The notes beneath the pieces are model-generated. The model had not been told where the DNA came from. It saw only the letters and a list, made by a program, of their open reading frames with translations, and did not search any database. A stretch of 16,882 nucleotides of DNA from the NCBI GenBank assembly GCA_964636085.1, contig CAZWPQ010000027.1, positions 8,340 to 25,221 of the forward strand, written 5' to 3'. The position numbers and the translations under genes are program-made. Each line of letters opens with the position of its first letter. The stretch's first letter is position 1. Origin of the DNA: an uncultured Nitrososphaerota archaeon. GTDB lineage: Archaea; Asgardarchaeota; Njordarchaeia; Njordarchaeales; Panguiarchaeaceae. Positions 11,335-11,500 of this stretch are shown here, piece by piece.

Positions 11335-11382
11335 TTTTTAAAATCAACTTTTTATTTTCTATACCTCCTAATTCTTTCTCGT
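11335..11382 (+). promoter_or_regulatory. Putative TATA box and short AT-rich leader of the mini-array
   Basis: TTTTTAAAA (11335-11343), preceded by purine-rich ATAAGA, ends 40 bp before repeat 1. Confidence 0.5.
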
Positions 11383-11490
11383 GTTGCATAGAAGAAATCC
11401 CTGAGAGGGAATTGAAGGGTGTGCTTCTTTATCGTATAGATATCAACCTTCTTATGTTGCATAGAAGTAATCCCTAAGGGGGGTTTGGGA
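11383..11490 (+). CRISPR. Orphan CRISPR-like mini-array: repeat (about 36 bp), one spacer (about 37 bp), degenerate terminal repeat
   Basis: R1 GTTGCATAGAAGAAATCCCTGAGAGGGAATTGAAGG (11383-11418). R2 GTTGCATAGAAGTAATCCCTAAGGGGGGTTTGGGA (11456-11490). 27 of the first 32 nt are identical; period 73 bp. R1 has a GTT start, a TCCCT/AGGGA hairpin and an ATTGAAG 3' end. Spacer GTGTGCTTCTTTATCGTATAGATATCAACCTTCTTAT. Confidence 0.8.
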
Positions 11491-11500
11491 TTTTTTCTTT
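11491..11500 (+). terminator. T-tract directly after the degenerate repeat; possible archaeal terminator of the mini-array RNA
   Basis: TTTTTTCTTT immediately 3' of R2. Confidence 0.4.

Follow-up and report, generated by a model that had tools for sequence, protein, structure and literature searches.

Repeat-spacer units lying apart from any cas locus are already well documented, both as orphan arrays and as mini-arrays, and a further mini-array would by itself matter little. In Anabaena, orphan arrays have reportedly been assigned to two Cas6 enzymes (bioRxiv 10.1101/2020.04.14.041012), and mini-arrays of the CreA/CreR kind are said to be the subject of the CreTA work of Li et al. in 2021. 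Stand-alone mini-arrays often have a degenerate distal repeat and are probably derivatives of terminal units (Shmakov et al., 2023, bioRxiv 10.1101/2023.03.03.530964), while mini-arrays borne by viruses normally copy the repeat of the active array of their host (Medvedeva et al., 2019, PMC6858448). Here we describe a unit with a single spacer from a genome of the Njordarchaeota. It is an orphan mini-array with the form of a terminal unit, and probably a relic of the turnover of CRISPR loci, left behind in an accessory region where toxin-antitoxin genes abound.

The window, which is the whole stretch of 16,882 nucleotides that was analyzed, corresponds to G000:C27:8340-25221, where G000 is a 2.41-Mb assembly of 102 contigs (83% complete, 39% GC). 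The mini-array is read on the forward strand, and its positions are given in window coordinates. Its first repeat, R1 (GTTGCATAGAAGAAATCCCTGAGAGGGAATTGAAGG, 36 nt, 11383-11418), is intact at all positions conserved in its family, and nt 16-28 of the repeat fold into a 5-bp hairpin (11398-11410) with a stem of TCCCT (11398-11402) and AGGGA (11406-11410) and the loop GAG. Directly 3' of this hairpin is the 8-nt tag ATTGAAGG (11411-11418), and the cut by Cas6 is predicted before 11411. The single spacer (11419-11455) is 37 nt long, or 38 nt if the repeat is taken as 35 nt, and is followed by a degenerate terminal repeat, R2 (GTTGCATAGAAGTAATCCCTAAGGGGGGTTTGGGAT, 11456-11491, hairpin 11471-11483). 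R1 and R2 are identical at 27/36 positions, with one mismatch in the 5' 20 nt and eight in the 3' 16 nt; R2 has thus retained its 5' 20 nt and the hairpin and has lost the 8-nt tag. The 3' stem arm of R2 has changed from AGGGA to GGGGG, and the hairpin still pairs at the RNA level through two G-U wobbles. Directly 3' of R2 is a run of six T (11491-11496), an archaeal-type termination signal, which a possible AATCCC/GGGATT stem precedes, and a terminator-like hairpin with a T run was predicted at 11469-11485.

Upstream of R1, an AT-rich, leader-like stretch could be read from the sequence (11320-11382, forward strand), which holds TATA-like boxes at 11327-11332 (TATAAG), 11335-11343 (TTTTTAAAA) and 11351-11358 (TTTATTTT) and sits in a non-coding gap of 374 nt between the start of a DUF6935 gene (11008, reverse strand) and R1. 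Strings of this kind are commonplace in AT-rich spacer DNA, and the promoter is a putative one. The 7 nt preceding each of the two repeats are alike as well (TTCTCGT at 11376-11382 and TTCTTAT at 11449-11455, 5/7 identical, with an estimated chance probability of about 0.03). This similarity might point to an origin in which a repeat was duplicated along with its flank, instead of one through the integration of a spacer.

The unit has the form expected of a CRISPR array, i.e., direct repeats of 23-47 nt around a unique spacer of similar length, with repeats of 36 nt, a spacer of 37 nt and a period of 73. In a repeat search of the window the pair came out as 39 nt long, 82% identical and spaced by 73. 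With 33 matches, the top 42-nt window at offset 73 exceeds all of 200 first-order Markov simulations, the highest of which reached 29. Further, a second, independent assembly (ENA ERZ27248328, L039) carries the mini-array, identical across the whole unit, and therefore the mini-array is not an assembly artefact. Between L039 and window positions 9355-14008, 2 of 4654 bases differ (at 13280 and 13287), both outside the mini-array. A 63-codon ORF running through the array (11286-11477) was rejected as spurious, such open frames being frequent in this AT-rich window, and scans of the window with Rfam at gathering thresholds and for tRNAs found nothing.

The repeat of the mini-array belongs to a family that forms longer arrays elsewhere. 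A degenerate repeat pattern was searched in one genome per species for 185,579 species, and it matched two records, namely G001, with a single copy, and L016, with 25 repeats. G001 is a congener of G000, a MAG titled Candidatus Njordarchaeota archaeon B13_G17. A metagenome collection contributed two further array contigs (L017 and L021), together with L018-L020, which are copies of the locus of the solitary repeat in G001. The arrays of L016, L017 and L021 comprise 17-25 repeats with a period of 72-78, which brackets the 73 of the mini-array, and their repeat (CTTGCATAGAAGTAATCCCCAGAAGGGAATTGAAAT) is identical to R1 at 30/36 positions. L016 (1-1939) is labelled as an uncultured Desulfurococcales archaeon, yet it has 10 spacers in common with L021 (1-2295), and over the 355 nt that adjoin the L021 array on its trailer side, L021 and G001:C89:1161-1515 are 94% identical. 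Therefore, the source of these arrays is a Njordarchaeon from this genus, and L016 appears to have been binned wrongly. Of 400 genomes of the phylum, only G000 and G001 have the repeat family (at ≤3 mismatches). In each of the six repeat types of the genus, the same small hairpin forms at a shared position, with a tag of 7-8 nt behind it; the two repeat groups of the genus have loops of unequal length, and an ungapped alignment of their repeats is therefore not a structural one. Taken together, the mini-array is a genuine CRISPR-derived repeat-spacer-repeat unit, and its repeat family is native to this genus of Njordarchaeota and distinct from the two cas-linked arrays of G000.

No cas family was detected on the whole 31.6-kb contig with Pfam, NCBIfam, PADLOC and PHROGs, so that the array is an orphan, with no cas gene within 19.7 kb upstream or 11.7 kb downstream of it. 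All cas genes of the genome are on contigs C28, C70 and C76. C70 (L003:1-6107) carries a type I-B-like operon, which reads cas1-cas2-cas4-(163-aa ORF without a family)-cas7-cas5-(389-aa ORF without a family)-cas3, and the 389-aa ORF is possibly Cas8. The gene order of this operon is unusual, and the contig ends fall inside cas1 and cas3. C76 carries a cas6 adjoining an array of 4 repeats, and C28 a type III-B operon comprising the second cas6, Cmr1, Cmr4, Cmr6 and Cas10/Cmr2, which adjoins an array of 50 repeats whose leader is at the end of C52. The two arrays together comprise 52 spacers. The genes of the two Cas6 proteins (C76:745-1575 and C28:9147-9959, 42% protein identity) were detected by NCBIfam TIGR01877, and both were missed by PF01881. 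A third Cas6 was not found in the assembly, which is 83% complete, and could be in the missing part.

The repeats of the resident arrays (GAAACATAGAGAATTCCCCAGGAGGGGGTTGAAAT and GAATCTTAGAGAATTCCTCAAGAGAGGGTTGAAAA) have the same architecture as R1, but are identical to it at only 24-25/36 positions. Their tags are GTTGAAAT and GTTGAAAA, and at the RNA level GUUGAAAU and GUUGAAAA differ from AUUGAAGG of the mini-array at 3/8 positions. No second copy of the mini-array repeat was found in G000 at ≤8 mismatches, and in an assembly of this completeness (83%) a cognate array could be in the missing part. Near the start of C18, 18 nt weakly match the repeat in its 5' half; they are inside a coding region and were dismissed as chance. 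The leader of the mini-array resembles neither that of the cas6-linked array on C76 nor the DNA upstream of the solitary repeat in G001.

These results bear on the original prediction, which had placed a CRISPR-type repeat-spacer-repeat unit at these coordinates and in this orientation, with no cas genes nearby. Both statements hold, the former by the match count above the simulated maximum and by the arrays that the repeat family forms, the latter for the contig as a whole. The prediction had also looked to the rest of the genome for cas genes and a cognate repeat; the cas genes are there, on other contigs (two Cas6, type I-B-like and type III-B), whereas a cognate repeat is not, the resident ones being identical at 24-25/36 positions. 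Likewise, it is correct that array finders demanding three repeats would miss this unit, which is now a verified array of one spacer.

The decay of R2 has a close counterpart in the genus. The terminal repeat of an array of 16 or more repeats on G001:C89 has kept its 5' part and hairpin and has lost the tag, (A/G)TTGAA (TTGAAAG), as has R2. R2 has decayed in the manner of an ordinary terminal repeat, and in its anatomy the mini-array matches the final unit of a normal array. Most likely, the collapse of an array, or the replacement or transfer of a CRISPR locus, left this one unit in an accessory region of low GC. If the unit is transcribed, Cas6 would cut at the 3' base of each hairpin and produce a single crRNA, roughly 73 nt long (11411-11483) and bearing the tag AUUGAAGG, and the release of this crRNA would require cross-recognition by one of the two non-cognate Cas6 enzymes of the genome. 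We infer the relic origin, as well as every step of expression, processing and loading. The parts that a crRNA would retain, i.e., the tag of R1 together with the 5' 20 nt (one mismatch) and hairpin of R2, are indeed the parts that are preserved, as had been pointed out at the outset; the decay of R2 is the usual one of a terminal repeat, seen also in the 16-repeat array of the sister species. On the other hand, the intact R1, the A-to-G changes in R2 that preserve pairing, and the clean run of six T make up a gene-like anatomy that would also fit a maintained functional unit.

The surroundings of the mini-array are those of an accessory region. The part of the window at 655-8799 encodes TSP3 repeats, a TPR protein and a PEPCK-like/enolase/iPGM/ferredoxin/AOR cluster, and the DUF6935 gene is at 10529-11008 on the reverse strand. 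Downstream of the mini-array is the gene of a 262-aa membrane protein with hydrophobic stretches at both ends (11562-12350), the TATA box of which (about 11507-11518) is conserved in paralogues in G001 that have no array. HEPN and nucleotidyltransferase toxin-antitoxin genes follow at 15182-16564, and the window also carries small ORFs without a family. GC is 37-39% in the region at about 9-17 kb, compared with 41-44%. Beside the HEPN gene there is a direct repeat of 58 nt (16570-16627 and 16825-16882, 98% identity, spacing 255 nt), with a weaker third copy at 16390. Outside the window, the contig has toxin-antitoxin genes (PIN and RHH), an AAA ATPase gene and five ORFs without a family. A block of five ORFs in the same orientation (470, 297, 137, 185 and 386 aa), with no match in Pfam, NCBIfam or PADLOC, is located at L008:2073-6460 (G000:C27:27172-31559, reverse strand), at a distance of 7.4 kb downstream from the mini-array.

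Relatives lack the unit at the corresponding places. The homologues of the downstream gene in G001 have kept the promoter, with no array in front, and the repeat is absent near the DUF6935 homologues of G002 and other assemblies, which are located between aldolase and amino-acid kinase genes. G001 has a solitary repeat of the same family (L020:7058-7093, 31/36 identical to R1) in a non-coding gap of 1 kb between a ParE-type pair and a MazE-PIN pair. Four assemblies contain this locus, and a single SNP, in the loop of the hairpin, is seen among them. A decayed second repeat downstream of it was considered and rejected, the local alignment being no better than those of shuffles. The HEPN-nucleotidyltransferase pair of the window (15174-15852) has 78% nucleotide identity to an inverted pair in G001 (L020:11799-12477), and in both genomes the pair is 4-5 kb from the stray repeat. 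The orthology of the two units that this pair suggested was rejected as unproven: the flanks are otherwise dissimilar, and that part of the island varies among G001 strains. In G000 itself, contig C47 (L038:8424-8458, reverse strand) has a solitary repeat of the type of the C28 array, with two substitutions, a 1-nt deletion and no second repeat. The region around it has no cas genes; toxin-antitoxin genes (AbiEi and HepT) and a gene for a beta-helix adhesin-like protein are close by. Together with the mini-array, this means that stray repeat units recur in G000.

The genus also bears traces of exchange at full CRISPR loci. In G001, an array with a different repeat is located about 600 nt beyond flanking DNA that is homologous to the trailer side of L021, and the junctions differ, an arrangement that suggests replacement of a CRISPR cassette. 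Since two repeat families are thus found beside homologous trailer-side DNA in close strains, turnover of the CRISPR locus is active. At least three related repeat families circulate in this one genus of Njordarchaeota. Within the G001:C89 array, repeat variants are tolerated, including one with the TCCCT stem arm as in R1.

A target of the spacer was sought in the own genome and beyond. In a full-length ungapped scan of the own genome the best match was 25/37, with shuffled spacers reaching 24-27, and blastn-short returned at best an exact match of 14 nt (E 0.19). The best matches on the cas contigs, at 20-25/37, are within the range of shuffled spacers, and in the surrounding 900 nt the longest exact run is 8 nt, where shuffles often give 7-9; seeds of 10-12 nt from this spacer are indistinguishable from chance. 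The 14 genomes of the class yielded no match at ≤3 mismatches. IMG/VR had no match to two half-spacer patterns and the JGI metagenomes had none to the central 22-mer, which are weak nulls given that these patterns were exact (21-23-mers) with zero tolerance for mismatches. Phage and plasmid collections (blastn) gave only matches of E ≥0.4 from unrelated bacteria, again a weak null, and viruses of this lineage may be unrepresented in the viral, plasmid and metagenome collections searched. In the reverse direction, none of the spacers from all arrays of the genus targets the contig of the mini-array.

The main rival of the relic explanation is a working stand-alone guide, expressed from its own promoter, cut by a resident Cas6 and loaded into the type I-B or III-B machinery for defence against one unsampled mobile element. 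We regard this as unlikely, if worth keeping in view. R1 differs from both resident repeats at 11-12/36 positions, including 3/8 of the tag, no protospacer was found in any collection searched, and the unit is absent from congeners. In its favor, however, are the intact R1, the R2 hairpin maintained by G-U pairs, the terminator of six T and the AT-rich leader, as well as two Cas6 enzymes and two effector systems in the genome, the tolerance for repeat variants in the array of the sister species (with its R1-like TCCCT stem arm) and the identity of the unit in a second assembly. A related but rather improbable explanation is that the unit is a domesticated single-guide RNA gene away from cas loci, which non-cognate Cas6 enzymes and effectors cross-use and which is part of a habit of the genus to keep stray repeats in toxin-antitoxin regions. 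Three such cases are seen, namely the mini-array and the solitary repeats of C47 and G001. If this were true, the stray units might control neighboring addiction modules or serve as decoys. It is very unlikely that the unit encodes a regulatory RNA of the CreA/CreR kind, with a partly complementary pseudo-spacer through which Cascade would repress a host promoter (for instance of a toxin or cas gene) without cleavage. A degenerate distal repeat is typical of such mini-arrays (Shmakov et al., 2023), and the region is rich in toxin-antitoxin genes, yet the unit is neither within nor beside any cas locus, no small toxin candidate was found nearby, and the spacer is no more complementary to the neighboring 900 nt, the cas contigs or the genome as a whole than shuffled spacers are. 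The analogy with regulatory or antitoxin RNAs, which had been proposed for this unit, therefore fails on both location and complementarity. Nor did comparison with relatives, suggested along with it as a check in which a conserved spacer would speak for regulation, lend it support, since the unit, its position and its spacer are not conserved in congeners.

Equally slight are the prospects of a mini-array brought in by an integrated virus or plasmid for competition between elements. The lower GC at about 9-17 kb, the ORFs without a family, the toxin-antitoxin pairs and a repeat type foreign to the resident arrays would be in keeping with such an origin. However, the neighbors are without PHROGs or PADLOC matches, and an integrase, a tRNA and an att-like flank were not found. 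Moreover, viral mini-arrays normally carry the repeat of the active host array (PMC6858448), whereas R1 is identical to the resident repeats at 24-25/36 positions, no spacer of the genus arrays targets the contig, and the spacer of the unit has no protospacer. Finally, that the unit is a direct repeat arisen by chance in the AT-rich DNA between genes can for practical purposes be dismissed, because its match of 33/42 exceeds the null maximum of 29 and its repeat agrees at 30-31/36 positions with genuine CRISPR repeats, which have the same hairpin, tag and period, even though it has two copies only and array finders often report false arrays of two repeats.

The unit is of modest use in three respects. 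A verified array of one spacer helps to calibrate CRISPR calls made on little evidence, and R1 and R2, together with the two Cas6 paralogues, are a substrate for testing how far cross-recognition by Cas6 reaches between diverged repeats. Further, different repeat families beside the same flanking DNA in close strains point to rapid turnover of CRISPR loci in an Asgard-affiliated lineage.

Compared with the known systems, the mini-array resembles orphan arrays that are served in trans or are decaying, such as those of Anabaena, in that a true repeat-spacer unit with a leader-like region is far from cas genes, with Cas6 and effectors elsewhere in the genome. It differs from them in having one spacer and a repeat that matches neither resident array, the nearest full array being in another strain of the genus. 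With virus-borne mini-CRISPR arrays and solitary repeat units (PMC6858448, PMC11656645) it has in common one or two spacers, the absence of cas genes and, if it is used at all, reliance on Cas proteins in trans, but its vicinity lacks any viral or plasmid hallmark, its repeat differs from that of the active host arrays, and no rival element is matched. Stand-alone mini-arrays and single repeat units from class 1 systems, CreA/CreR among them, are similar in their two repeat-like sequences, one spacer, degenerate distal repeat and probable origin from a terminal unit. Those elements, however, are inside or beside cas loci and have spacers that partly match cas8 or toxin promoters, whereas the mini-array is on a contig free of cas genes and its matches are at chance level. 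R2 and the terminal repeat of the G001:C89 array have decayed in the same way, but the latter closes an array of 16 or more repeats, whereas R2 follows a single spacer.
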